Shown here piece by piece: positions 1 through 20,028 of a stretch of 64,000 nucleotides of DNA. Origin of the DNA: Escherichia coli (GTDB lineage Bacteria; Pseudomonadota; Gammaproteobacteria; Enterobacterales; Enterobacteriaceae). The position numbers were made by a program, and so were the translations under genes. The stretch's first letter is position 1; every line of letters starts with the position of its first letter. Under the pieces are notes generated by a model, which made no database searches, was not told the DNA's origin, and saw only the letters and a program-made list of their open reading frames with translations. The stretch is from assembly GCF_046105845.1 (NCBI RefSeq), contig NZ_CP151004.1; one strand, written 5' to 3'.

Positions 1-1085
<1,085 letters not shown>

Positions 1086-1880
1086 ATGGCTATCTCAATC
1101 AAGACCCCAGAAGATATCGAAAAAATGCGCGTCGCTGGCCGACTGGCTGCCGAAGTGCTGGAGATGATCGAACCGTATGTTAAACCGGGCGTCAGCACCG
1201 GCGAGCTGGATCGCATCTGTAATGATTACATTGTTAATGAACAACACGCGGTTTCTGCCTGCCTCGGCTATCACGGCTATCCGAAATCCGTTTGCATTTC
1301 TATTAATGAAGTGGTGTGCCACGGTATCCCGGACGACGCCAAGCTGCTGAAAGATGGCGATATCGTTAACATTGATGTCACCGTAATCAAAGATGGTTTC
1401 CACGGCGATACCTCGAAAATGTTTATCGTCGGTAAGCCGACCATCATGGGCGAACGTCTGTGCCGCATCACGCAAGAAAGCCTGTACCTGGCGCTGCGCA
1501 TGGTCAAACCAGGCATTAATCTGCGCGAAATCGGTGCGGCGATTCAGAAATTTGTTGAAGCAGAAGGTTTCTCCGTCGTTCGTGAATATTGTGGACACGG
1601 TATTGGTCGTGGCTTCCATGAAGAACCGCAGGTACTGCACTATGACTCCCCTGAAACCAACGTCGTGCTGAAACCGGGGATGACCTTCACCATCGAGCCA
1701 ATGGTCAACGCGGGTAAAAAAGAGATCCGCACCATGAAAGATGGCTGGACGGTAAAAACCAAAGATCGCAGCTTGTCTGCACAATATGAGCATACTATTG
1801 TGGTAACTGATAACGGCTGCGAAATTCTGACGTTACGCAAGGATGACACCATCCCGGCGATAATCTCGCACGACGAATAA
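1086..1880 (+). CDS. map: Methionine aminopeptidase
   Basis: 264-aa ORF MAISIKTPEDIEKMRVAGRLAAEVLEMIEPYVKPG...; full-length family match. Confidence 0.97.
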   Translation: MAISIKTPEDIEKMRVAGRLAAEVLEMIEPYVKPGVSTGELDRICNDYIVNEQHAVSACLGYHGYPKSVCISINEVVCHGIPDDAKLLKDGDIVNIDVTVIKDGFHGDTSKMFIVGKPTIMGERLCRITQESLYLALRMVKPGINLREIGAAIQKFVEAEGFSVVREYCGHGIGRGFHEEPQVLHYDSPETNVVLKPGMTFTIEPMVNAGKKEIRTMKDGWTVKTKDRSLSAQYEHTIVVTDNGCEILTLRKDDTIPAIISHDE

Positions 1881-1884
1881 GATG

Positions 1885-1908
1885 AAGCCGGCGAATGCCG
1901 GCTTTTTT
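1885..1908 (+). terminator. Rho-independent terminator after map
   Basis: Hairpin aagccggc-gaat-gccggctt followed by a run of six T. Confidence 0.7.
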
Positions 1909-1923
1909 AATGCGATAATTTAA

Positions 1924-4614
<2,691 letters not shown>

Positions 4615-4644
4615 TGTGTTTACTGATATGAAAAGAGTTTAACA

Positions 4645-5469
4645 ATGCAGCAGTTACAGAACATTATTGAAACCGCTTTTGAACGCCGTGCCGAGATCAC
4701 GCCAGCCAATGCAGACACCGTTACCCGCGAAGCGGTAAATCAGGTGATCGCCCTGCTGGATTCCGGCGCACTGCGTGTAGCGGAAAAAATTGACGGTCAG
4801 TGGGTGACGCATCAGTGGTTGAAAAAAGCGGTGCTGCTCTCTTTCCGTATTAATGATAATCAGGTGATCGAAGGGGCAGAAAGCCGCTACTTCGACAAAG
4901 TGCCGATGAAATTCGCCAACTACGATGAAGCACGTTTCCAGAAAGAAGGCTTCCGCGTCGTGCCACCAGCGGCAGTGCGTCAGGGCGCGTTCATTGCCCG
5001 TAACACCGTGCTGATGCCGTCTTACGTCAACATTGGCGCATATGTTGATGAAGGCACGATGGTTGATACCTGGGCGACCGTCGGTTCCTGTGCGCAGATT
5101 GGTAAAAACGTCCACCTTTCCGGTGGCGTGGGTATCGGCGGCGTGCTGGAGCCGCTGCAGGCTAACCCGACCATTATTGAAGATAACTGCTTCATCGGCG
5201 CGCGCTCTGAAGTGGTTGAAGGGGTGATTGTCGAAGAAGGTTCCGTCATCTCTATGGGCGTATACATTGGTCAGAGCACCCGTATTTACGACCGTGAAAC
5301 CGGCGAAATCCACTACGGTCGCGTTCCGGCGGGATCTGTGGTTGTTTCAGGCAATCTGCCGTCGAAAGATGGCAAATACAGTCTTTACTGTGCGGTTATC
5401 GTTAAGAAAGTTGACGCGAAAACTCGCGGCAAAGTCGGCATTAACGAACTGCTGCGTACCATCAACTAA
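4645..5469 (+). CDS. dapD: 2,3,4,5-tetrahydropyridine-2,6-dicarboxylate N-succinyltransferase
   Basis: 274-aa [37 protein letters not shown]...; hexapeptide-repeat C-terminus. Confidence 0.97.
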
Positions 5470-5481
5470 AAGTATGCACAC

Positions 5482-5510
5482 GGGCAGCACGACGCTGCCC
5501 GATTGCTTTC
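5482..5510 (+). terminator. Putative terminator hairpin after dapD
   Basis: Stem gggcagc / gctgccc with 5-nt loop, followed by a moderately T-rich tract. Confidence 0.45.
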
Positions 5511-5783
5511 TGGTTCAGAATAATTCGTCCTACTCATTCTTCTTCCCCCCTTTTTTAAATACTTTTTCATCTTGTTTCGGACTGTCATGTAATTCGCAAA
5601 ACGAAGATAAATGTGCTAATCCATCCCATGGAATATCGCCACAATAAAGCAGGTAATTTTTTGATTTTTACGCCATGATAGAAGTCTGGAAGAAAAAGGC
5701 TTTCTGCGATCACAGTCGAGCCGGGCGGGCCAGGCCAAATGCTAAAATAAGCACAATTTACTGACTCATTTTGAGGTAACGCT

Positions 5784-6170
5784 ATGTACGACAATCTGAA
5801 AAGTCTGGGTATTACCAATCCTGAAGAAATTGATCGTTACAGCCTCCGGCAGGAAGCCAACAACGATATTCTGAAAATCTATTTCCAGAAAGACAAAGGC
5901 GAGTTTTTCGCCAAGAGCGTGAAGTTTAAATATCCGCGTCAGCGTAAAACGGTCGTCGCTGATGGTGTGGGTCAGGGTTATAAAGAAGTCCAGGAAATCA
6001 GCCCGAATCTAAGGTATATCATTGATGAGCTTGATCAAATCTGCCAGCGTGACCGCAGCGAAGTTGATCTTAAGCGTAAGATCCTCGACGACTTACGTCA
6101 CCTGGAGTCAGTTGTAACCAATAAGATCAGCGAGATTGAAGCCGATCTGGAAAAACTAACGCGTAAATAA
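5784..6170 (+). CDS. yaeH: UPF0325 family protein YaeH
   Basis: 128-aa [45 protein letters not shown]... Confidence 0.93.
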
Positions 6171-6195
6171 TCCCGAACTGACGGTTAACTCGGGC

Positions 6196-6228
6196 ATTCC
6201 CCTCTCCCCTTCGGGCTGAGGGGAATGA
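6196..6228. terminator. Hairpin between convergent yaeH and cdaR (possible bidirectional terminator)
   Basis: Perfect 10-bp stem cattcccctc / gaggggaatg with 13-nt loop; no clear U-tract. Confidence 0.35.
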
Positions 6229-6258
6229 GCCAGCGCCGCCTCGACCTTAACGCATAAC

Positions 6259-7416
6259 CTACCGCTCTTCATCCAGTTGTAACGCCACATACAGCAGCAA
6301 TCTGTCATCAAAATTGCCCAAATCAAGCCCGGTCAGTTCCGATATACGATTAAGCCGATACTCCAGGGTATTACGATGAATAAACAGCGCCTTTGACGTT
6401 GCCAGCGGCTGCACGTTATGGCGAAACCACGCCGCCAGCGTTCGCCGCAGCAAGCCGTTATTGTCCATCGCTTTCAGCCGCGCCAGCGGTCGCGCCAGTT
6501 CGTTGGCCTGCCAGTCGCCACGCAAACTGTCGAGTAACACAGGTAACATCAGATCCTGATAAAAATAGCAGCGACTTTCTGGCATCCGTTGTTTACCCAC
6601 CACCATCGTCGTTTTCGCCGTACGATAGGATCGGGCAATACTGCCAGGACCGGTAAAATAGTTGCCCAGCGAAACGCGAAAACGCAGCTGGCCGTACTCT
6701 TTCATGCGGGTAATCAGTTGTTCAACTCGCTTACGATGATCTTCTGCATCCCAGCGCCCAAAAGAGTTCAACGCCGGTTTCAACACCACCATTTCGGTTA
6801 GCGAGACAATCGCCACCAGATTATTACGCTCGGGCGTAGTCAGCGCGTTTTGCAGTTGTTGTAACTCCGCCATTGCGCTGTCCACACCAAGCTGACCGCT
6901 GTCGACCTCAACAATAGCCACCACTCGCGGTTGATTGAGATCGATCCCCAGCCGTTGCGCCCATTCCGTAAGTGCGGGAGTATTCTCCTCAGCCTGAATC
7001 AGGTTCATCACCAGTTCTTCCCGCAAACGGCTATCCTGCGCCAACAGGTGCATCAACCGCGACTGTTCCAGCATCATTTCAGCCGTCATGCAGACCAGTT
7101 CGCCATATTTACGCAGGTTCTCTGGTTCACCAGTCAGGCCAATTACGCCGACAATTTCACCTTCCAGCCGTAACGGCAGATTAATCCCCTGCCGCACACC
7201 GTGCAGATGACGTGCCACCGCGTCATCGATATCGACGACTCGTCCCTGTGAAAGTACCAGCAATGCTCCTTCGTGCAATTCACCAATACGCTCACGATCG
7301 CCGCTGCCGATAATTCGCCCGCGGGCATCCATTACGTTGATATTGGTATCGATGATGCGCATGGTACGTGCCACGATATCCTGCGCCATTTTGGTATCAA
7401 GATGCCAGCCAGCCAT
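6259..7416 (-). CDS. cdaR: Carbohydrate diacid regulator (PucR/CdaR family)
   Basis: ORF 6259-7434 (-); start taken at MAGWHLDTKMAQDIVARTMRII (385 aa); C-terminal helix-turn-helix. Confidence 0.9.
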   Translation of the reverse strand: MAGWHLDTKMAQDIVARTMRIIDTNINVMDARGRIIGSGDRERIGELHEGALLVLSQGRVVDIDDAVARHLHGVRQGINLPLRLEGEIVGVIGLTGEPENLRKYGELVCMTAEMMLEQSRLMHLLAQDSRLREELVMNLIQAEENTPALTEWAQRLGIDLNQPRVVAIVEVDSGQLGVDSAMAELQQLQNALTTPERNNLVAIVSLTEMVVLKPALNSFGRWDAEDHRKRVEQLITRMKEYGQLRFRVSLGNYFTGPGSIARSYRTAKTTMVVGKQRMPESRCYFYQDLMLPVLLDSLRGDWQANELARPLARLKAMDNNGLLRRTLAAWFRHNVQPLATSKALFIHRNTLEYRLNRISELTGLDLGNFDDRLLLYVALQLDEER

Positions 7417-7534
7417 AAGTCCTCCGTTATGCACGGCTTAGCATAAGGAAGTACGTAACGTACGGCATTGTGCAAATGCCCAAAGGATGATGAAGATGTA
7501 TGGAGTTGTGGCGAAGTTCACAGATTGTAAGGAG

Positions 7535-7562
7535 AACCCCTTCCCGTATTCAGGAAGGGGTT
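7535..7562 (-). terminator. Putative terminator after degP
   Basis: Stem aaccccttcc / ggaaggggtt with 8-nt loop, immediately after the degP stop; weak U-tract on - strand. Confidence 0.45.
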
Positions 7563-7570
7563 GAGGGAGA

Positions 7571-8995
7571 TTACTGCATTAACAGGTAGATGGTGCTGTC
7601 GCCGCGCTGAATGTTCAGTGCCAGCACAGACGGTTTGCTGTCGAGAACTTTACGCAGTTCAGCGATGTTTTTCACTGCCTGCTGGTTCGCGCCGATAATC
7701 ACATCACCTTTCTTCAGGCCGATCTGCGCAGCCGGAGTGCCCGTTTTCACGTTGTTCACTACCACGCCCTGATCTTTGCCTTTGTTGCTCATCTCAGCGC
7801 CTTCAATACCGTTGAAGATGGAGCTGGAATCAACCTGATTCTGGCTGCTCTGCTGCAGTTCCAGATTCACGTTGACCTGCTTACCGTCGCGCAGCAAGCC
7901 CAGGGTCAGTTTGCTGCCCACCGGCATAGTACCCACCTGAGCACGCAGGGCGGCAAAGCTGCTGATTGGCTTACCGTTCAGTGAGGTGATCACATCTCCC
8001 GCTTTAATGCCCGCTTTTGCAGCGGAGGAATTAGGCAGAACCTGGCTTACGAAAGCACCGCGCTGGGCGTCAACTTTCATCGCTTTCGCCAGTTCGGAGT
8101 TCAGCTCAGTCCCCATAATACCCAGCTCACCGCGTTTCACCTGGCCGTATTCCACCATCTGCGAGGTCAGGTTTTTCACCATGTTGCTCGGGATAGCAAA
8201 ACCGATACCGATGTTGCCGCCGTCCGGTGCGAGGATCGCGGTGTTGATACCGATCAGTTCACCGTTCAGGTTAACCAGCGCACCACCGGAGTTACCACGG
8301 TTGATCGCTGCATCGGTCTGGATGAAGTTTTCGTAGTTTTCGGCATTCAGCCCGCTACGCCCCAGCGCAGAGACAATCCCGGAAGTTACCGTCTCACCCA
8401 GACCAAACGGGTTACCAATCGCTACGGTGTAATCACCCACGCGCAGTGCATCAGAATCCGCCATCTTAATTGCGGTCAGGTTTTTCGGGTTCTGGATCTG
8501 GATCAGCGCGATATCAGAGCGCGGATCTTTGCCGACCATCTTCGCGTCGAACTTACGGCCATCGCTCAGCTGGACTTTAATCACCGTCGCGTTATCAACA
8601 ACGTGGTTGTTGGTGACGACATAGCCTTTATCGGCATCAATGATGACGCCGGAACCCAGCGCCATGAATTTCTGTTGCTGGCCGCCACCATTACCGCCCT
8701 GGCCCCCCTGGCAGAACGGAGAGCTCTGGAACGGAGAACCTTCCTGGCAGAACGGAGAATCATCACCGAAGAACTGCTGGAAATTACGCGGCATACGCGG
8801 CGTATTAACGGTTGTGCTACCTTCTACGTTAATGCTGACCACTGAAGGCATCACCTTTTCGAGCATCGGTGCAAGGCTTGGCATCTGCTGGGCTGTCGTT
8901 GCTGAAGAAGTCTCAGCCGCCGTTGCAGAGAGCGGAGATAACGCCAAACCTAAACTCAGAGCCAGTGCACTCAGTGCTAATGTGGTTTTTTTCAT
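7571..8995 (-). CDS. degP: Periplasmic serine endoprotease DegP/HtrA
   Basis: 474-aa ORF MKKTTLALSALALSLGLALSPLSATAAETSSATTAQQMPSLAPMLEKVMPSVVSINVEG...; trypsin-like plus two PDZ regions. Confidence 0.97.
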   Translation of the reverse strand: MKKTTLALSALALSLGLALSPLSATAAETSSATTAQQMPSLAPMLEKVMPSVVSINVEGSTTVNTPRMPRNFQQFFGDDSPFCQEGSPFQSSPFCQGGQGGNGGGQQQKFMALGSGVIIDADKGYVVTNNHVVDNATVIKVQLSDGRKFDAKMVGKDPRSDIALIQIQNPKNLTAIKMADSDALRVGDYTVAIGNPFGLGETVTSGIVSALGRSGLNAENYENFIQTDAAINRGNSGGALVNLNGELIGINTAILAPDGGNIGIGFAIPSNMVKNLTSQMVEYGQVKRGELGIMGTELNSELAKAMKVDAQRGAFVSQVLPNSSAAKAGIKAGDVITSLNGKPISSFAALRAQVGTMPVGSKLTLGLLRDGKQVNVNLELQQSSQNQVDSSSIFNGIEGAEMSNKGKDQGVVVNNVKTGTPAAQIGLKKGDVIIGANQQAVKNIAELRKVLDSKPSVLALNIQRGDSTIYLLMQ

Positions 8996-9040
8996 GTATT
9001 TCAGTCTCGATTAACAGATAACGCAAAATTGCTGTGTTCT

Positions 9041-9068
9041 TCAGATTCGTTTTATAGCGCGAAGTTCC
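9041..9068 (-). promoter_or_regulatory. Sigma-E type promoter of degP
   Basis: On the - strand GGAACTT, 16-nt spacer, TCTGA (window aagttcc at 9062-9068 and tcaga at 9041-9045); matches sigma-E consensus spacing. Confidence 0.7.
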
Positions 9069-9124
9069 GAACTAAAGTTTCTGCAAAAGGTAAAAATTTA
9101 TTGTTCGTCTTTACAAAAGCCTGG

Positions 9125-10642
9125 TTATTGTTCTACGGCCATCAGACGTCGGTATTCATCCCACGCATAGAGGTCGGTCATACCGCTGATATAATCCTGC
9201 AGCAGGCGGCAACGGTAATAATATTCCCATAGCGGAAACTCAGGAGAATCTGACGGTAATTTACTGACAGCCTCGACATAGGCCAGCCGATGGCGCGTCG
9301 AGAGTTTGTGGAATAAGCGCGATTCAATAGGGAAACGTTTCACCCGTTCTTTTTCTACCAGTTCAGTAAAGTCTGATAACGACAGGCTTAATAAAGGACG
9401 ATAAATCTCTAATAATCCGCTAATGACCCGATAGCCCTGCAATTCAAGCTGCTCGACATCTGGATGGCTAAACACATGTTTTACAGCGACATTTTTATAA
9501 AGCTTAAGAAGATCGCTGCATTCGCTGGCATCTTCCAATAATGCATGATTAAACGTTCCGGCGAAAATCGCAGGCAGATTATCAATAAATCGTTGTGCCG
9601 CGTAGGGTACCAGTTTATTTAGAGTGTTTACCCTTAAATACATAAAAAACTGATCTTCCGTACTGCGGCTTAAACTATTTGAGCGTGATTTTTCCCAGGC
9701 ATTTTCAACCACCAGCGAAAAGAGCGAACCTTTCTCATGCTGGCCCCACGCTTCGTGCAAATGATGATAAAGCTGCTCAACGGTAAATATTCTTTTCTCT
9801 ACCGCATCTTCAAGATCTGCCACACAATAGGAGATGTCGTCGGCAGCTTCCATAATCCACGTTAATGGAAAACGACTGTAAAGCGCCAAATTAAGTTCTT
9901 TACGCAACCGGGCAATATAGGCTTCCTCAGAAAGATAATAACCCGGCTTTTTCATTAAATAGTGATGTGTCTCAGGCGTTTCACCACGCCACCACGCCGG
10001 ACGAGTATATTTTAAAATACCGCCAACCTGTGCCCAGGTGAGATTCATCCGCATCAATGTATGCACCAGACGAATGCCTTGTGCATTCCCCTCAAAATGA
10101 CATAAATCCTGACGTATTTTGCGCCGCAGCTCGTTAAGCGGTTCTTCCCCGTCCCGTAAACGTAGTGCTGCCACGCTGCAGCGATCGTCAGTCAGAGGCT
10201 GGCTTTCGGCATCTTCCGGGTGCAAACGCTGGCGAAACCAGTCATTTATCGCCGCTTCGCCAAAATGACCAAACGGCGGATTGCCGATATCGTGCATCAG
10301 GCATGACATCTCAACAATGCTTTCAAAGGGGCCGGTCAGTTCATCCAGGCCGTATGCTTCCAGCAATTTAAGCTCTTTCAGACGGCTTAAAATTTCTTTG
10401 GCGATGTAGCGCCCCACCTGCTGGACTTCCATCGAGTGGGTAAGACGCGTGCGCACGGCGGCATTGCGCTCCAGTGGAAAAACCTGGGTCTTTTGTTGCA
10501 GACGACGAATTGCCGGAGAGTTGATGATACGCCCGCGATCGCTCTCGAAGATCCGCAGGATCTCATGTTCGGTTTTAACGCCCTGTGGTGAACGGTAACG
10601 ACGATGCCAGTTTATTTTTTTTCGGAAATCAATCTGTGCCAT
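9125..10642 (-). CDS. dgt: Deoxyguanosinetriphosphate triphosphohydrolase
   Basis: 505-aa [58 protein letters not shown]...; HD domain. Confidence 0.96.
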
Positions 10643-10725
10643 GTCCTCTCCCGCGTGAGAAATACGCTTCCCCGTAAGCGCATGGTAAACTATGCCTTCA
10701 AATCGGGCTTATCGCGAGTAAATCT

Positions 10726-11424
10726 ATGAAAATCGGCATCATTGGTGCAATGGAAGAAGAAGTTACGCTGCTGCGTGACAAAATCGAAAACCGTCAAACT
10801 ATCAGTCTCGGCGGTTGCGAAATCTATACCGGCCAACTGAATGGAACCGAGGTTGCGCTTCTGAAATCGGGCATCGGTAAAGTCGCTGCGGCGCTGGGTG
10901 CCACTCTGCTGTTGGAACACTGCAAGCCAGATGTGATTATTAACACCGGTTCTGCCGGTGGCCTGGCACCAACGCTGAAAGTGGGCGATATCGTTGTCTC
11001 GGACGAAGCACGTTATCACGACGCGGATGTCACGGCATTTGGTTATGAATACGGCCAGTTACCAGGCTGTCCGGCAGGCTTTAAAGCTGACGATAAACTG
11101 ATCGCTGCCGCTGAGGCCTGCATTGCCGAACTGAATCTTAACGCTGTACGTGGCCTGATTGTTAGCGGCGACGCTTTCATCAACGGTTCTGTTGGTCTGG
11201 CGAAAATCCGCCACAACTTCCCACAGGCCATTGCTGTAGAGATGGAAGCGACGGCAATCGCCCATGTCTGCCACAATTTCAACGTCCCGTTTGTTGTCGT
11301 ACGCGCCATCTCCGACGTGGCCGATCAACAGTCTCATCTTAGCTTCGATGAGTTCCTGGCTGTTGCCGCTAAACAGTCCAGCCTGATGGTTGAGTCACTG
11401 GTGCAGAAACTGGCACATGGCTAA
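10726..11424 (+). CDS. mtn: 5'-methylthioadenosine/S-adenosylhomocysteine nucleosidase
   Basis: 232-aa [56 protein letters not shown]... Confidence 0.97.
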
Positions 11425-12217
11425 GTCACTGTTCAGGGCGCTGGTCGCCCTGTCTTTTCTTGCGCCACTGTGGCTCAACGCCGCGCCGCGCGTCATCACG
11501 CTTTCTCCCGCCAACACTGAACTTGCCTTTGCCGCCGGGATCACGCCGGTTGGGGTCAGCAGCTATTCCGACTATCCTCCACAAGCGCAAAAGATTGAGC
11601 AGGTTTCCACCTGGCAGGGGATGAATCTGGAACGCATTGTGGCGCTGAAACCCGATCTGGTGATTGCCTGGCGTGGAGGTAATGCCGAGCGGCAGGTTGA
11701 CCAGCTGGCTTCGCTGGGAATAAAAGTGATGTGGGTCGATGCGACAAGCATTGAACAAATTGCCAATGCGTTACGTCAACTGGCCCCCTGGAGTCCGCAA
11801 CCTGACAAGGCCGAACAAGCCGCGCAATCCCTGCTGGACCAGTACGCGCAATTGAAAGCGCAATATGCTGATAAACCTAAAAAACGTGTTTTTCTGCAAT
11901 TCGGCATTAATCCGCCATTTACCAGTGGAAAAGAGTCGATTCAAAACCAGGTACTCGAAGTTTGTGGCGGAGAAAACATCTTTAAAGACAGCCGGGTTCC
12001 CTGGCCGCAAGTTAGCCGCGAACAGGTGTTAGCACGCTCGCCACAGGCGATTGTCATTACAGGCGGACCGGTCCAAATTCCTAAAATCAAACAATACTGG
12101 GGTGAACAGCTCAAAATTCCCGTTATTCCTCTCACGAGTGACTGGTTTGAACGTGCAAGCCCACGTATTATCCTCGCTGCACAACAGCTCTGTAATGCGC
12201 TTTCACAGGTAGATTAG
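11417..12217 (+). CDS. btuF: Vitamin B12 periplasmic binding protein
   Basis: ORF 11390-12217; start taken at [24 protein letters not shown] (signal peptide, 266 aa); overlaps mtn 3' end by 8 bp. Confidence 0.9.
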
Positions 12218-12254
12218 CGCCTGACCTTTTCAGGTGCTCAGTGGGGATTGAACA

Positions 12255-12878
12255 ATGCTCGTCTATTGGCTGGATATAGTCGGCACAGCGGTATTTGCCA
12301 TCTCCGGCGTTTTGTTAGCCGGAAAATTGCGTATGGACCCTTTTGGTGTTCTGGTACTGGGCGTGGTAACCGCAGTAGGCGGCGGAACAATTCGCGACAT
12401 GGCGCTGGATCACGGCCCGGTATTTTGGGTGAAAGATCCCACCGATCTGGTCGTTGCAATGGTCACCAGCATGCTGACCATCGTGCTGGTGCGCCAGCCA
12501 AGACGCTTACCAAAATGGATGTTGCCGGTGCTGGACGCCGTTGGTCTGGCGGTGTTTGTCGGCATTGGCGTGAATAAAGCCTTTAATGCGGAAGCCGGTC
12601 CGTTAATCGCGGTTTGTATGGGCGTCATTACTGGCGTTGGCGGCGGGATCATTCGTGATGTACTGGCCCGCGAAATCCCCATGATTTTACGTACAGAAAT
12701 CTACGCAACAGCCTGTATTATCGGCGGTATTGTCCACGCTACGGCTTATTACACATTTTCCGTACCACTGGAAACAGCCAGTATGATGGGCATGGTCGTG
12801 ACGCTATTGATTCGGCTGGCGGCTATTCGTTGGCATCTTAAGCTACCGACGTTTGCGCTGGATGAGAATGGGCGTTGA
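12255..12878 (+). CDS. yadS: UPF0126 inner membrane protein YadS
   Basis: 207-aa hydrophobic ORF MLVYWLDIVGTAVFAISGVLLAGKLRMDPFGVLVLGVVTAVGGGTIRD...; duplicated glycine-rich motif. Confidence 0.93.
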   Translation: MLVYWLDIVGTAVFAISGVLLAGKLRMDPFGVLVLGVVTAVGGGTIRDMALDHGPVFWVKDPTDLVVAMVTSMLTIVLVRQPRRLPKWMLPVLDAVGLAVFVGIGVNKAFNAEAGPLIAVCMGVITGVGGGIIRDVLAREIPMILRTEIYATACIIGGIVHATAYYTFSVPLETASMMGMVVTLLIRLAAIRWHLKLPTFALDENGR

Positions 12879-12887
12879 AGAGAGAAG

Positions 12888-12914
12888 ATGTGCCGGATAG
12901 TTTATCCGGCACAT
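12888..12914. terminator. Hairpin between convergent yadS and erpA
   Basis: Perfect 12-bp stem atgtgccggata / tatccggcacat with 3-nt loop. Confidence 0.4.
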
Positions 12915-12924
12915 GAACAACAGA

Positions 12925-13269
12925 TTAGATACTAAAGGAAGAACCGCAACCGCAGGTGCTTTTCGCGTTCGGGTTGGTCACGATGAAACGAGAACCTTCC
13001 AGACCTTCGGTATAGTCAACGGAACCGCCGACCAGATATTGCAGGCTCATCGGGTCAACCACCAGGCCAACGCCCTGTTTTTCGATGGTCATATCGCCTT
13101 CGTTCACCTGATCATCAAAGGTGAAACCATACTGGAAGCCGCTGCAACCGCCACCGGTGATATACACGCGTAATTTCAGATTCGGGTTATCTTCGTCAGC
13201 GATCAGGCTTTTAACTTTGTTGGCTGCTGCGTCGGTAAACTCCAGCGGCAGTGCTACGTCATCACTCAT
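12925..13269 (-). CDS. erpA: Iron-sulfur cluster insertion protein ErpA (A-type carrier)
   Basis: ORF 12925-13302 (-); start taken at [22 protein letters not shown] (114 aa); C-terminal CGCGSSF motif. Confidence 0.92.
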
Positions 13270-13350
13270 ATTTTGCTCCAAACGACATCGGCAATTGGGC
13301 AAATTCTAACCCAATAATAATCGCCATTATCTAATACCCTGGTATTTCGT

Positions 13351-14790
<1,440 letters not shown>

Positions 14791-14996
14791 TCATACAAAT
14801 AAGATGACGGCATTTTACTCGCACGTTCCATGAAAATCCTTTGCAAAGCGTAATGTTTCAAATGCACAAAACTTTTATACTCTAAGAAATCAGGATTGCA
14901 CCAGTACAAGCAGCCTGATGTTTGACGAGTATTTAACTTGTTATGAATAACATAGAATAGCAGCCATTCACTTTTTCTACGAATCAGGAACCCTCC

Positions 14997-16277
14997 ATGA
15001 GTAAGTCTGAAAATCTTTACAGCGCAGCGCGCGAGCTGATCCCTGGCGGTGTGAACTCCCCTGTTCGCGCCTTTACTGGCGTGGGCGGCACTCCACTGTT
15101 TATCGAAAAAGCGGACGGCGCTTATCTGTACGATGTTGATGGCAAAGCCTATATCGATTATGTCGGTTCCTGGGGGCCGATGGTGCTGGGCCATAACCAT
15201 CCGGCGATCCGCAATGCCGTGATTGAAGCCGCCGAGCGTGGTTTAAGCTTTGGTGCACCAACCGAAATGGAAGTGAAAATGGCGCAACTGGTGACCGAAC
15301 TGGTCCCGACCATGGATATGGTGCGCATGGTGAACTCCGGCACTGAAGCGACCATGAGCGCCATCCGCCTGGCCCGTGGTTTTACCGGTCGCGACAAAAT
15401 TATTAAATTTGAAGGTTGTTACCACGGTCACGCTGACTGCCTGCTGGTGAAAGCCGGTTCTGGCGCACTCACGTTAGGCCAGCCAAATTCGCCGGGCGTT
15501 CCGGCAGATTTCGCCAAACATACCTTAACCTGTACTTATAACGATCTGGCCTCTGTACGCGCCGCGTTTGAGCAATACCCGCAAGAGATTGCCTGTATTA
15601 TCGTCGAGCCGGTGGCAGGCAATATGAACTGCGTTCCACCGCTGCCAGAGTTCCTGCCAGGTCTGCGCGCGCTGTGCGACGAATTTGGCGCGTTGCTGAT
15701 CATCGATGAAGTGATGACCGGTTTCCGCGTAGCGCTAGCTGGCGCACAGGATTATTACGGTGTGGAACCGGATCTCACCTGCCTCGGCAAAATCATCGGC
15801 GGTGGAATGCCGGTAGGCGCATTCGGTGGTCGTCGTGATGTAATGGATGCGCTGGCCCCGACCGGTCCGGTCTATCAGGCGGGTACGCTTTCCGGTAACC
15901 CGATTGCGATGGCTGCTGGTTTCGCCTGTCTGAATGAAGTCGCGCAGCCGGGCGTTCACGAAACGCTGGATGAGCTGACAACACGTCTGGCAGAAGGTCT
16001 GCTGGAAGCGGCAGAAGAAGCCGGAATTCCGCTGGTGGTAAACCACGTTGGCGGCATGTTCGGTATTTTCTTTACCGACGCCGAGTCCGTGACGTGCTAT
16101 CAGGATGTGATGGCCTGTGACGTGGAACGCTTTAAGCGTTTCTTCCATATGATGCTGGACGAAGGTGTTTATCTGGCACCGTCAGCGTTTGAAGCGGGCT
16201 TTATGTCTGTGGCGCACAGCATGGAAGATATCAATAACACCATCGATGCTGCACATCGGGTGTTTGCGAAGTTGTGA
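14997..16277 (+). CDS. hemL: Glutamate-1-semialdehyde 2,1-aminomutase
   Basis: 426-aa [52 protein letters not shown]... Confidence 0.97.
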
Positions 16278-16285
16278 TGATTTTG

Positions 16286-16306
16286 CCTCGCCCACCGGGC
16301 GAGGCA
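16286..16306. terminator. Hairpin between convergent hemL and fhuB
   Basis: Stem gcctcgccc / gggcgaggc with 3-nt loop filling most of a 34-bp spacer. Confidence 0.4.
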
Positions 16307-16311
16307 TTCAA

Positions 16312-18294
16312 TTAACGGCTCTGCTTTCTCAACAAATAGATAAAATATGGCGCGCCGATAAAGGTCGACAGCAGCCCCGCTGGGATCTGGAATGGAAACA
16401 GCACCATCCGCCCACACCAGTCAGCGAACACCAGCAGTAAACCACCCACCAGCGCCGAAATTACGATGTGTGGCATCGTCCGTCGAAAGCCCATCATCCG
16501 CGCAATATGCGGTGCCATTAAACCAACAAAACTCAACGGTCCAATAGTCATCGTCGCGGTCGCCGTCAGGCAAGCCGCTAATAGCAGCAGCGCAATTCGC
16601 GTCGGCGTCAGCGCCATTCCTACGGCTCGTGCGGTATCACCGCCCAGCGGTAAAATGGTCAGCCAGCGGCGGCACAGCGGGGTAATCGCCAGCAAAATTA
16701 CCATCGCAATTCCCGTGCGCCAGACCTGCGCATCGGTCGCGTTGTAGGTCGAACCGGAAATCCAAGTCAGAACTTGCGCCATTCGCGGGTCACCACTTGC
16801 CTGCAACATCATCAAAAGCATGGTGAACGCGGTACTTAACGCCATCCCCGCCAGTAGCATGCGGTGTGGGGAAAATCCACCGCGGCCGGCGGCGATCATA
16901 ATGATCAACAGCGTCACCGCCGCCCCGAGACTACCCGCAGGTAACAGCCAGCCAAAGGCATTACCCGGCACCAGAAACAGCATCAACACCACGCCAAACG
17001 CCGCGCCGGAGCTAATCCCCAGCACTTCCGGGCTTGCCATCGGGTTGCCGGTCAGCCGCTGAATAATACAGCCCGCCACCGCCAGCATGACTCCCGCAAA
17101 CAGCGCCGCCATAATTCGCGGCCAGCGCCAGGGCATTAAATCCTCGAGCAACGCCCCGCTCGCCCACGTCCAGCCGTGCGCATCACGGCCAAACGACAGC
17201 GCCACCACCACTGCCATCAACAGCAGCACGCCGCCCGCGAGGGCAAACGCCAGCACATGTTGGCGTTCAGCAGCGACACGATCGTTCACCTTCATATCCG
17301 GCGCGCTAATGCTGCGTAAACGCGGCAGCAGCCAAAGTAGCAGCGGCGCACCTATCAACGCAGTGACCGAACCGGTAGAAACTTCCATCCACACGCGAGT
17401 CAGCCAGAGGATGATTTGATCAGAAAGCCACAGAATTAACGCCCCAATCAGCGACGCCAGCATCAATCGTGGCAACAAACGCCGCGCCCCCAGCATTTTT
17501 GCCAGCAGTGGCGCGAACAACCCGATAAAGCCGATAATCCCCACCGCATTCACCAGCAGCGCACTGATGACTATCGCCAGCGTCAGCGCCGCCAGACGCG
17601 CGAGCGACAAGGCCAGCCCGAGATTGCGCGCCACGCCATCATCAAGCCCCATCAGGGTTAACGGGCGAAGTAGCAATAACGTCAGCATCACGCCGCCCAG
17701 CAGCTGCGGCCATAAACGCTCAACGCCGCCCCAGTCGGTTTGCGTCAGCGTTCCGGTGCTCCACAGAAACATGCTTTGCAGTTGGTCATGATGGAAGATA
17801 ACCAGTAACTGATTGATTGCACCGCAATAAAGGCTCACTACCAGCCCCGCGAGAATCAGCGTTACCGGCGACAGCCGTTTCCCCCACGCGACGCCAAAGA
17901 CAATTAAGCCAACCACACAAGCCCCTGCCAGTGCAGCAAACTGGCTCGCCATAGCACCTGGGATCGCCCAGAGCGTGGTGACGGTAATCCCCAGTTGCGC
18001 GCCTGTAGCAACGCCCAGCGTCGTCGGTTCCGCCAGCGGGTTACGCAGCACTTGCTGAAACAGCACGCCCACCAGCCCCAGGCCCGCGCCCACCAGCAGC
18101 GAAATCGCCAGACGCGGCAGCAAGCTGTAGTGAAAAATCATCTGCTCGATGACATCGATATCCGGCGACCAGGCAGCCTGCGCCCACTGGCTACGCGGCA
18201 GCGCTTGCGAAAAGTTCATCCAGGTGAGCGCCGCTGCGACAATCACCAGCAGCGCCAGCAATAACGCCGGGAAAAGCGCAATTCGTTTACTCAC
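16312..18294 (-). CDS. fhuB: Ferric hydroxamate ABC transporter permease
   Basis: 660-aa ORF MSKRIALFPALLLALLVIVAAALTWMNFSQALPRSQWAQAAWSPDIDVIEQ...; duplicated FecCD-type permease halves. Confidence 0.96.
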   Translation of the reverse strand: MSKRIALFPALLLALLVIVAAALTWMNFSQALPRSQWAQAAWSPDIDVIEQMIFHYSLLPRLAISLLVGAGLGLVGVLFQQVLRNPLAEPTTLGVATGAQLGITVTTLWAIPGAMASQFAALAGACVVGLIVFGVAWGKRLSPVTLILAGLVVSLYCGAINQLLVIFHHDQLQSMFLWSTGTLTQTDWGGVERLWPQLLGGVMLTLLLLRPLTLMGLDDGVARNLGLALSLARLAALTLAIVISALLVNAVGIIGFIGLFAPLLAKMLGARRLLPRLMLASLIGALILWLSDQIILWLTRVWMEVSTGSVTALIGAPLLLWLLPRLRSISAPDMKVNDRVAAERQHVLAFALAGGVLLLMAVVVALSFGRDAHGWTWASGALLEDLMPWRWPRIMAALFAGVMLAVAGCIIQRLTGNPMASPEVLGISSGAAFGVVLMLFLVPGNAFGWLLPAGSLGAAVTLLIIMIAAGRGGFSPHRMLLAGMALSTAFTMLLMMLQASGDPRMAQVLTWISGSTYNATDAQVWRTGIAMVILLAITPLCRRWLTILPLGGDTARAVGMALTPTRIALLLLAACLTATATMTIGPLSFVGLMAPHIARMMGFRRTMPHIVISALVGGLLLVFADWCGRMVLFPFQIPAGLLSTFIGAPYFIYLLRKQSR

Positions 18295-19181
18295 GCTTTA
18301 CCTCCGATGGCGTTATCCAGAATACGCACAAAGTGCATTGCCGAAAGCGTCGCGCCATAGAACCAGACCGCCGGAACGCGCTGAAAGCGTCCGGCGCGGA
18401 CAAACGGCATGGCCTGCCACAGCGGCGTCGCCATTAGGGCGTCCATGTCTTTGCTGTTGTCGTGATCAAAACAGAGCACATCAACGTCTTTATACGCCGC
18501 CAGACGATCGATACTGACGGCGGTACTGCCCCAGAAGTTGGTTTCCCCTTGCCAGGCATTTGGGATGCCGTACTCATCAAGAATTTCCTGGAACAAGCTG
18601 TTTGGACCGAAGACCAGCATATGGCGCGGATCGATAAGTGTCGTCAGTAATAACGGACGCGCACCACGCTTCACAAAGCGGGGTTTCATGCTGCGGATAA
18701 AGTCTTCATAGTGCGCTAAATGCGTTTCTGCTGCGCTTTGCAGGTTAAGTAAATCTGCCATTTCCGTCAGTGATTTACGCGCCATCGCCAGCGGCTGTTT
18801 GCCGTCGCTGAAGTTAAATCCGCGCCCCGGCGCAATACGTGCCAGCATTTCTGGTGAAGGGCCATATCCTGCCGACCAGACCATAAACGACGGTTTCATT
18901 TCGGTCAGCAGTTCAAGGTTAGGTTCTGTACGCAAACCAACGTCAATCACTGAGTCCGGCAATGGTGGTTCGCTGACCCACAGGCGATAGTTGATGGTGT
19001 CCGCCACGCCGTAAGGCACGATGCCGAGCGCCAGCAGTAATTCCACCGGCAACCACTCCAGCGCCACAATACGATTGGGATCAATAGCCGCCGCGTGGGC
19101 GGTATTCATCTGCCATAACAACGGAGAAAGCGCCATCGCCGTTAACAGTCGGCGGCGCGAAATAAGAGGTAAGCCGCTCAT
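18291..19181 (-). CDS. fhuD: Ferric hydroxamate periplasmic binding protein
   Basis: ORF 18291-19184 (-); start taken at MSGLPLISRRRLLTAMALSPLLWQMNTAHA (296 aa); 4-bp overlap with fhuB start. Confidence 0.93.
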   Translation of the reverse strand: MSGLPLISRRRLLTAMALSPLLWQMNTAHAAAIDPNRIVALEWLPVELLLALGIVPYGVADTINYRLWVSEPPLPDSVIDVGLRTEPNLELLTEMKPSFMVWSAGYGPSPEMLARIAPGRGFNFSDGKQPLAMARKSLTEMADLLNLQSAAETHLAHYEDFIRSMKPRFVKRGARPLLLTTLIDPRHMLVFGPNSLFQEILDEYGIPNAWQGETNFWGSTAVSIDRLAAYKDVDVLCFDHDNSKDMDALMATPLWQAMPFVRAGRFQRVPAVWFYGATLSAMHFVRILDNAIGGKA

Positions 19182-19978
19182 CAATAAACAAAACTCACAG
19201 GTGCAGCACCCGCCGGATGCGGCAGAATACCCATCGGGATGCCATAAATCATTTCGAGGGTTTCGCCGCGCATAATTTCCGCAGGCGTTCCCTGAGCAAT
19301 CATTTCACCGCCGCGCAGGGCGACCAGATAATCACAGTAGCGCGCCGCCATATTAATATCGTGCAGCACGGCAATGACCGTCAGACCACGTTCCTGACTT
19401 AAACGATGCACCAGCGCCAGCACGTCAACCTGGTGGGCGATATCCAGCGCCGAGGTCGGTTCGTCGAGCAACAGACAACGGCTATCCTGCGCCACCAGCA
19501 TAGCGATCCACGCCCGCTGACGTTCGCCGCCAGAGAGACTATCGACCAGCCGATGCGCCAGCGGTTTTAAGCCAACCAGCGAAATCGCCTCTTCGACCTT
19601 TTCGCGATCTGCCGCACCAAAGCGCCCCAGTGCGCCATGCCACGGGTAACGACCAATCGCCACCAGTTCACGCACGGTCATCCCTTCTGCCGGAGGAAGC
19701 TGCTGCGGCAAATAAGCCACTTTGCGGGCGAACGCTTTGCTGCTCCAGCTTTCCAGCGGCTGGGCATCAAGAAGAATTTCGCCTTCCGACGGTGGCTGAT
19801 GACGGCCAAGCATTTTGAGCAGAGTGGATTTACCAGAACCGTTGTGACCAATCAGACCAGTCACTTTCCCGGCAGGAAAGGTTAACGACAGCGGATGCAA
19901 AAGCGTGCGCCCTGGCACACGAAAGGAGATATTACGCAGTGCAAAAGTGGTATCGGAATGATTCGTGTATTCCTGCAT
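19181..19978 (-). CDS. fhuC: Ferric hydroxamate ABC transporter ATP-binding protein
   Basis: ORF 19181-20020 (-); start taken at MQEYTNHSDTTFALRNISFRVPGRTLL (265 aa); Walker A GHNGSGKST; 1-bp overlap with fhuD. Confidence 0.93.
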   Translation of the reverse strand: MQEYTNHSDTTFALRNISFRVPGRTLLHPLSLTFPAGKVTGLIGHNGSGKSTLLKMLGRHQPPSEGEILLDAQPLESWSSKAFARKVAYLPQQLPPAEGMTVRELVAIGRYPWHGALGRFGAADREKVEEAISLVGLKPLAHRLVDSLSGGERQRAWIAMLVAQDSRCLLLDEPTSALDIAHQVDVLALVHRLSQERGLTVIAVLHDINMAARYCDYLVALRGGEMIAQGTPAEIMRGETLEMIYGIPMGILPHPAGAAPVSFVY

Positions 19979-20028
19979 AACAGCCAACTTGTGAAACGGG
20001 CACGGAAATCCGTGCCCCAAAAGAGAAA

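Follow-up and report, generated by a model that had tools for sequence, protein, structure and literature searches.

The 314-bp spacer between dapD and yaeH in the window (the whole 64-kb stretch of Escherichia coli DNA analysed here) is very probably the widespread form of this locus without yaeI, one of three allelic states in Escherichia, left by an old deletion of yaeI and of most of a neighbouring gene, here called geneX. At the dapD–yaeH locus the strain is without YaeI, and a copy elsewhere in its genome is unlikely, since the genome counts for yaeI and for the sequence that takes its place are complementary. On present evidence the interval appears to be non-coding, and would terminate dapD transcription and carry the promoter and leader of yaeH.

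The preliminary description of this DNA placed only 314 bp between the dapD stop codon and the yaeH start, as the open reading frame (ORF) listing confirms (Table 1), with no ORF of yaeI size and no phosphoesterase motif between them; the longest open stretch in the six frames of the spacer is 65 codons, and the motifs GNH[DE], GDxx[DY] and GHxH are all absent from its six-frame translation. Proposed tblastn searches with YaeI (270 aa, strain Z30) returned nothing, either against the 64-kb window (best E 0.56) or against positions 5400–5850 alone (best E 0.26, over 13 residues), so that no ORF similar to YaeI (NCBIfam NF008460; Pfam PF00149, Metallophos) was detected there. The gene order and size given for K-12 are also correct, MG1655 having dapD–yaeI–yaeH with 1027 bp from the dapD stop to the yaeH start, and the neighbouring spacers have K-12 lengths as stated (glnD–dapD 30 bp and yaeH–cdaR 88 bp in both). 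K-12 YaeI is a metallophosphoesterase: with 531 bits it clears the NF008460 cut-off of 188, and it reaches 49.8 bits for PF00149; its match to a Tat signal is weak and stays below the cut-off. The source names of some homologues call it a phosphodiesterase that acts on bis-pNPP, a model substrate.

Table 1. Features of the dapD–yaeH locus in the window, with coordinates of comparator genes.
Feature	Position	Strand	Basis and remarks
glnD	1942–4614		ORF listing
dapD CDS, 274 aa	4645–5469	+	ORF listing; annotated dapD in matching E. coli records; left flank of variable site
Predicted antisense ORF, 23 codons	5466–5537	minus	Overlaps dapD terminator and stop codon; preceded by purine-rich run GGGGGGAAGAAGA
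dapD–yaeH spacer, 314 bp	5470–5783		ORF listing
Left segment common to yaeI-bearing alleles	5470–5504	+	blastn junction; K-12-type homology ends after CCCGATT (5504)
dapD terminator hairpin, CGGGCAGC-ACGAC-GCUGCCCG	5481–5501	+	Terminator scan and fold
Filler, 129 bp, 37% GC, pyrimidine-rich	5505–5633		Allelic to 842-bp yaeI segment of K-12
geneX 3'-end relic	5614–5664	+	Spans right junction 5633/5634; anchored alignment and in-frame translation
Right shared segment, 150 bp upstream of yaeH	5634–5783	+	Begins TATCGCC; common to all Escherichia alleles
yaeH CDS, 128 aa, DUF3461	5784–6170	+	ORF listing; right flank
cdaR	6259–7434	minus	ORF listing
degP	7571–8995	minus	ORF listing
geneX, Escherichia sp. 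MOD1-EC7003	L014 2672–3382
geneX, E. coli GF43	L083 2515–3225
geneX, Salmonella-labelled assembly	L096 3822–4556
dapD, MG1655	185123–185947
yaeI, MG1655	184257–185069
yaeH, MG1655	183709–184095

The spacer is composed of three segments, of which the outer two are shared with yaeI-bearing strains: blastn aligns positions 5400–5504 to the yaeI-bearing Z30 locus with a 98% match, and positions 5634–5850 are 100% identical to Z30 over 217 nt. The left segment contains a hairpin with an 8-bp stem (7 GC pairs) that passes the terminator scan and folds at −22.4 kcal/mol (z −4.2), giving the GC-rich stem and U-tract of an intrinsic (Rho-independent) terminator, though the U-tract is interrupted; the hairpin is the same in K-12, but the tail reads AUUGCUUUCU in the window and AUUUUUUUGC, a stronger U-tract, in K-12. 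Between the outer segments lies the 129-bp filler, whose Z30 counterpart is 842 bp made up of yaeI and its immediate flanks (18 bp on the upstream side, 11 bp on the downstream side). The suggested alignment of positions 5400–5850, run against Z30, thus found the yaeI segment missing as anticipated, but not as a clean deletion: filler and 842-bp insert do not align to each other by blastn, so the difference is of the replacement type, and a simple deletion model, like the proposed loss of about 0.7 kb, fails because 129 bp that cannot be aligned to the K-12 type stand between the junctions.

The filler is found in 3338 of the 5426 complete E. coli genomes at 93–100% identity and in exactly one place in each (distant blastn), ruling out a copy of sequence from elsewhere in E. 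coli; it is unannotated among the matches listed. Significant alignment of the filler to anything is limited to its last 20 nt. Its first ~107 nt could not be matched significantly to yaeI or geneX by local, nhmmer or chained alignment: collinear chained alignment without the 3' geneX anchor gives p 0.06–0.35, a left-anchored match to the start region of yaeI gives p 0.001–0.17 depending on the comparator, and a weak match to yaeI codons ~45–55 recurs in local alignments. Homology of the whole filler to yaeI–geneX was not borne out: in local, left-anchored and chained alignments, significance is confined to the geneX 3' end, and the remainder could not be told apart from shuffles. A diverged or frameshifted yaeI in the spacer was rejected on the basis of tblastn (E up to 1000), of the motif scan and of an nhmmer profile built from nine yaeI-bearing spacers, which found nothing in the filler.

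The history of the site is recorded in the 3' end of the filler, which preserves the end of geneX, a 236–244-aa ORF lying between yaeI and yaeH in the cryptic Escherichia sp. MOD1-EC7003 (L014), E. coli GF43 (L083) and a Salmonella enterica-labelled assembly (L096). In E. coli GF43 and relatives the product of geneX is recorded as the hypothetical protein WP_157916455.1; it has no match in Pfam, NCBIfam or PADLOC. Its C-terminus in all three genomes reads ...CEPVPWGIA(R/K)IKQVIF* (asterisk, stop codon), and the last nine codons with the stop fall within the 150 bp common to all Escherichia alleles, such that the ‘intergenic’ DNA upstream of yaeH starts with the fossil end of a gene now lost from K-12. 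In the window, in-frame translation gives C*SIPWNIATIKQVIF* against CEPVPWGIARIKQVIF* in intact geneX, reading across the junction (slash) as C*SIPWN/IATIKQVIF* with a premature stop, the IATIKQVIF* part corresponding to positions 5635–5664. Directly upstream of the junction, positions 5614–5633 match geneX at 14 of 20 nucleotides in anchored alignment, a result equalled by 0 of 2000 shuffles; the similarity is collinear and in frame, and ends at the same stop codon position, as in a pseudogene relic. K-12 keeps the last 9 geneX codons and the stop, whereas the window keeps ~7 codons (20 nt) more, and because these extra nucleotides are missing from the K-12-type allele, the short allele cannot descend from that allele. 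The two would instead be independent deletion derivatives of a dapD–yaeI–geneX–yaeH ancestor, and descent from a yaeI and geneX spacer of ~1.7 kb would put the net loss at ~1.4 kb, not the figure first proposed.

The preliminary description attributed the loss of yaeI to this strain, an attribution that does not survive comparison with other genomes: the same junctions and the same filler recur in the 3338 genomes given above and in Escherichia sp. E1V33. Of the 5424 complete E. coli genomes that match, 3343 have the contiguous short form, scored as at least 80% of window positions 5300–5950 covered in one piece, and the yaeI-less allele is the majority form, at ~61% of complete E. coli, with K-12 carrying the minority form. 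In the short allele the dapD 3' end, filler and yaeH 5' end are contiguous, with junctions after CCCGATT and before TATCGCC; it is carried by O157:H7, O104:H4, an ATCC 25922-like strain and ECA64. yaeI is present in 2085 of 5426 complete genomes, including K-12 and a BL21-like NEBExpress strain, and the filler and yaeI counts together total 5423 of 5426, consistent with mutually exclusive states; the long allele with both yaeI and geneX occurs in one E. coli of 5426 (GF43). In a published pan-genome study, yaeI is one of the orthologous groups for which phylogroup A shows significant enrichment (PMC5422975). All aligned short alleles, including that of Escherichia sp. E1V33, have the same left junction and filler, and the same right junction except for strain BS-04, with a further deletion; the common junctions and filler argue for a single origin of the short allele. 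BS-04 (L085 1897–2193) carries a rare variant with a 297-bp spacer, in which another T/C-rich sequence stands in for the 5' half of the filler and the 3' end has lost 28 bp, and is the sole genome of the 3338 with less than 80% of the filler covered.

Species-representative genomes were scanned with YaeH, giving 80 loci that included neither E. fergusonii nor typical Salmonella. Within Escherichia, yaeI occupies this interval in E. albertii, E. whittamii, SCPM-O-B-8794 and Escherichia sp. MOD1-EC7003; the allele of Escherichia sp. E1V33 is the short one, with the same filler in a 310-bp spacer. Outside the genus, Superficieibacter electus encodes a YaeI homologue (65% amino acid identity) between dapD and yaeH, and the Salmonella-labelled assembly encodes one of 84% identity at the same position, followed by geneX. 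The flanks of this last locus are about as distant from E. coli as those of Citrobacter, yet its YaeI and that of E. albertii are equally close to E. coli YaeI, a pattern that hints at some horizontal movement of yaeI; outside Escherichia, the long arrangement may be either ancestral or a product of transfer. In the same assembly, yaeH is followed closely on its 3' side by an IS110-family transposase gene (L096, 5314–6300). Most sampled Enterobacteriaceae, among them Citrobacter, Klebsiella, Enterobacter, Kluyvera, Raoultella and Cedecea, have a dapD–yaeH spacer of ~107–121 bp with another terminator and without yaeI. Other genes have entered the interval in Enterobacter: E. wuhouensis has a 762-aa minus-strand ORF in a 2587-bp spacer (L055 914–3500), and isolate BIGb0383 a 646-bp spacer (L063 2855–3500) with a 57-aa ORF whose N-terminus resembles a lipoprotein signal peptide. 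The site seems to take up insertions repeatedly.

The ancestral order would have been dapD–yaeI–geneX–yaeH, from which one old deletion, or a few, may have removed yaeI and nearly all of geneX, leaving the dapD terminator, a decayed 129-bp filler ending in the 3' end of geneX, and an intact yaeH upstream region; the K-12 allele would have arisen separately by deletion of geneX alone. The retained geneX relic is the main evidence that the window records a loss, not a gain by K-12, and the occurrence of yaeI at the same site in other Escherichia, in Superficieibacter and in the Salmonella-labelled assembly also favours loss. That part of the original claim therefore stands, yaeI being absent relative to K-12, but the loss is old and shared by most E. 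coli. The converse history, in which the short spacer would be the original state and an ancestor of K-12 and the other yaeI-bearing strains gained yaeI, alone or together with geneX, by insertion, so that the window shows no loss, draws on the gene-free spacers of most Enterobacteriaceae, on the insertions taken by the site in Enterobacter and on the scarcity of close YaeI relatives outside Escherichia (Superficieibacter, 65%; a related lineage, 64%; the Salmonella-labelled assembly, 84%), with named YaeI matches below ~55% identity coming from Verrucomicrobiota, as expected of an acquired gene. We consider it quite unlikely: an in-frame geneX 3' relic with a premature stop in the short allele makes sense only if geneX came first, yaeI recurs at this position in representatives of at least four further Escherichia species and in two other genera, each time with greater divergence than its flanks, and both alleles have Escherichia-specific flanks, unlike the ~110-bp spacer of other genera. 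The chance that a collapsed or mis-joined assembly, or a sequencing error, dropped yaeI from the window is negligible, as the same arrangement recurs with junctions identical base for base in thousands of independent complete genomes.

The filler might alternatively be a functional replacement, acting as an antisense 23-aa peptide (5537..5466), as an RNA, or as an element altering dapD termination or yaeH expression, in keeping with its persistence in more than 3300 genomes, with a U-tract after the dapD hairpin weaker than that of K-12, and with the retention of the antisense ORF, together with the purine-rich stretch ahead of it, in 6 of the 7 short alleles examined, including that of Escherichia sp. 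E1V33. This is very unlikely in view of filler variation of up to 7% with homopolymer indels among E. coli, and of BS-04, in which half of the filler is rewritten and the ORF is lost; Rfam returned only a sub-threshold sroE match (21 bits, where the gathering score is 51), placed on the terminator hairpin, and a scan of both strands gave no promoter-like site. Half of the antisense ORF is the terminator hairpin, which accounts for its conservation, and the ORF is probably spurious because of this overlap and its loss in BS-04.

The window and Z30 are nearly identical in the 3' half of dapD and identical upstream of yaeH, but opposite in yaeI state, and O157:H7 and K-12 likewise combine similar flanks in dapD with opposite states; no link of allele state to flank haplotype was found, the flanks being mosaic and unsorted by yaeI state. 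Because nearly identical flanks carry opposite states and the mosaic is unsorted, the alleles have most simply been carried from one E. coli background to another by homologous recombination in the conserved flanks, as we would read the pattern. The mosaicism is visible among E. coli at window positions ~4070–5469 (the glnD 3' end and dapD), where 200-nt patches diverged by 5–11% lie beside patches diverged by 0–1%. Over positions 1–20000 of the window the best match among the 5426 complete E. coli genomes is 98.5–98.7% identical over 20 kb, so the lineage of the window is not closely represented in that collection. yaeI itself is diverse: K-12 and GF43 copies share 80.7% nucleotide identity, against ~96.5% (about 96–97%) in the adjoining dapD and yaeH, and 339 of the 2085 yaeI-bearing genomes fall below 95% identity to the Z30 allele. 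Divergent alleles occur in L089, L090, L084, L083 and others, and all alleles examined are intact. A long-lived three-state polymorphism across Escherichia, shuffled by recombination, whose diversity reflects balancing or diversifying selection rather than neutral loss, is conceivable but unlikely; if true, selection would act on a predicted, possibly Tat-exported phosphodiesterase and its partner geneX or, in a minor variant, the filler would encode the 23-aa antisense peptide.

Downstream of the filler, the 150-bp right segment, recognisable homologues of which are present in the Salmonella-labelled assembly and in Superficieibacter, presumably holds the yaeH promoter and 5' untranslated region. 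By eye, TGCTAAAAT at positions 5740–5748 looks like an extended −10 element, which would put the start of yaeH transcription about 7 nt beyond 5748, and GAGG at 5773–5776 like a Shine–Dalgarno site; a sigma-70 consensus promoter scan of positions 5300–6300 on both strands found none. RpoD holoenzyme binding has been reported in the K-12 yaeI–yaeH spacer (PMC3946193). The spacer on the other side of yaeH (yaeH–cdaR, window 6171–6258) is dimorphic, with an 88-bp form containing an inverted repeat (TTCCCCTC...GAGGGGAA) in the window, K-12, O157:H7 and Escherichia sp. E1V33, and an unrelated 53-bp form in Z30, the ATCC 25922-like strain, ECA64 and E. albertii; the form is unlinked to yaeI state.

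Presence/absence polymorphism of yaeI is already known and visible in standard annotation, and the geneX relic, with the proposed independent origins of the K-12 and short alleles, is a minor refinement. Its importance is small, as the absence of yaeI is normal in most E. coli, and taking K-12 as the mental reference would flag the dapD–yaeH site in most non-A strains; what is gained is a clearer picture of how the locus evolved.

Compared with described arrangements, the window has the same flanking genes in the same orientation as K-12 MG1655 (b0166-b0164-b0163) and a nearly identical 150 bp upstream of yaeH, but 129 bp of filler where K-12 has 842 bp with yaeI. O157:H7, O104:H4, the ATCC 25922-like strain and ECA64 carry the same allele as the window in a 311–314-bp spacer, with filler identity of 100% for ECA64 and 99.2% for O157:H7 and otherwise point and homopolymer-length differences; their flanking dapD haplotypes differ from that of the window owing to mosaicism. 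The long allele of Escherichia sp. MOD1-EC7003, E. coli GF43 and the Salmonella-labelled assembly occupies the same site, with the same terminator and yaeH upstream region, but holds two intact genes in a ~1.7-kb spacer, neither of which is present in the window. The ~107–121-bp spacer of Citrobacter, Klebsiella, Enterobacter and Kluyvera is gene-free like that of the window, but is unrelated in sequence and has a different terminator (AAAAAGCGGG...CCCGCTTTTTTT); the yaeH upstream region of the genera with this spacer also differs, with similarity to the window resuming only ~12–17 nt before the yaeH ATG.
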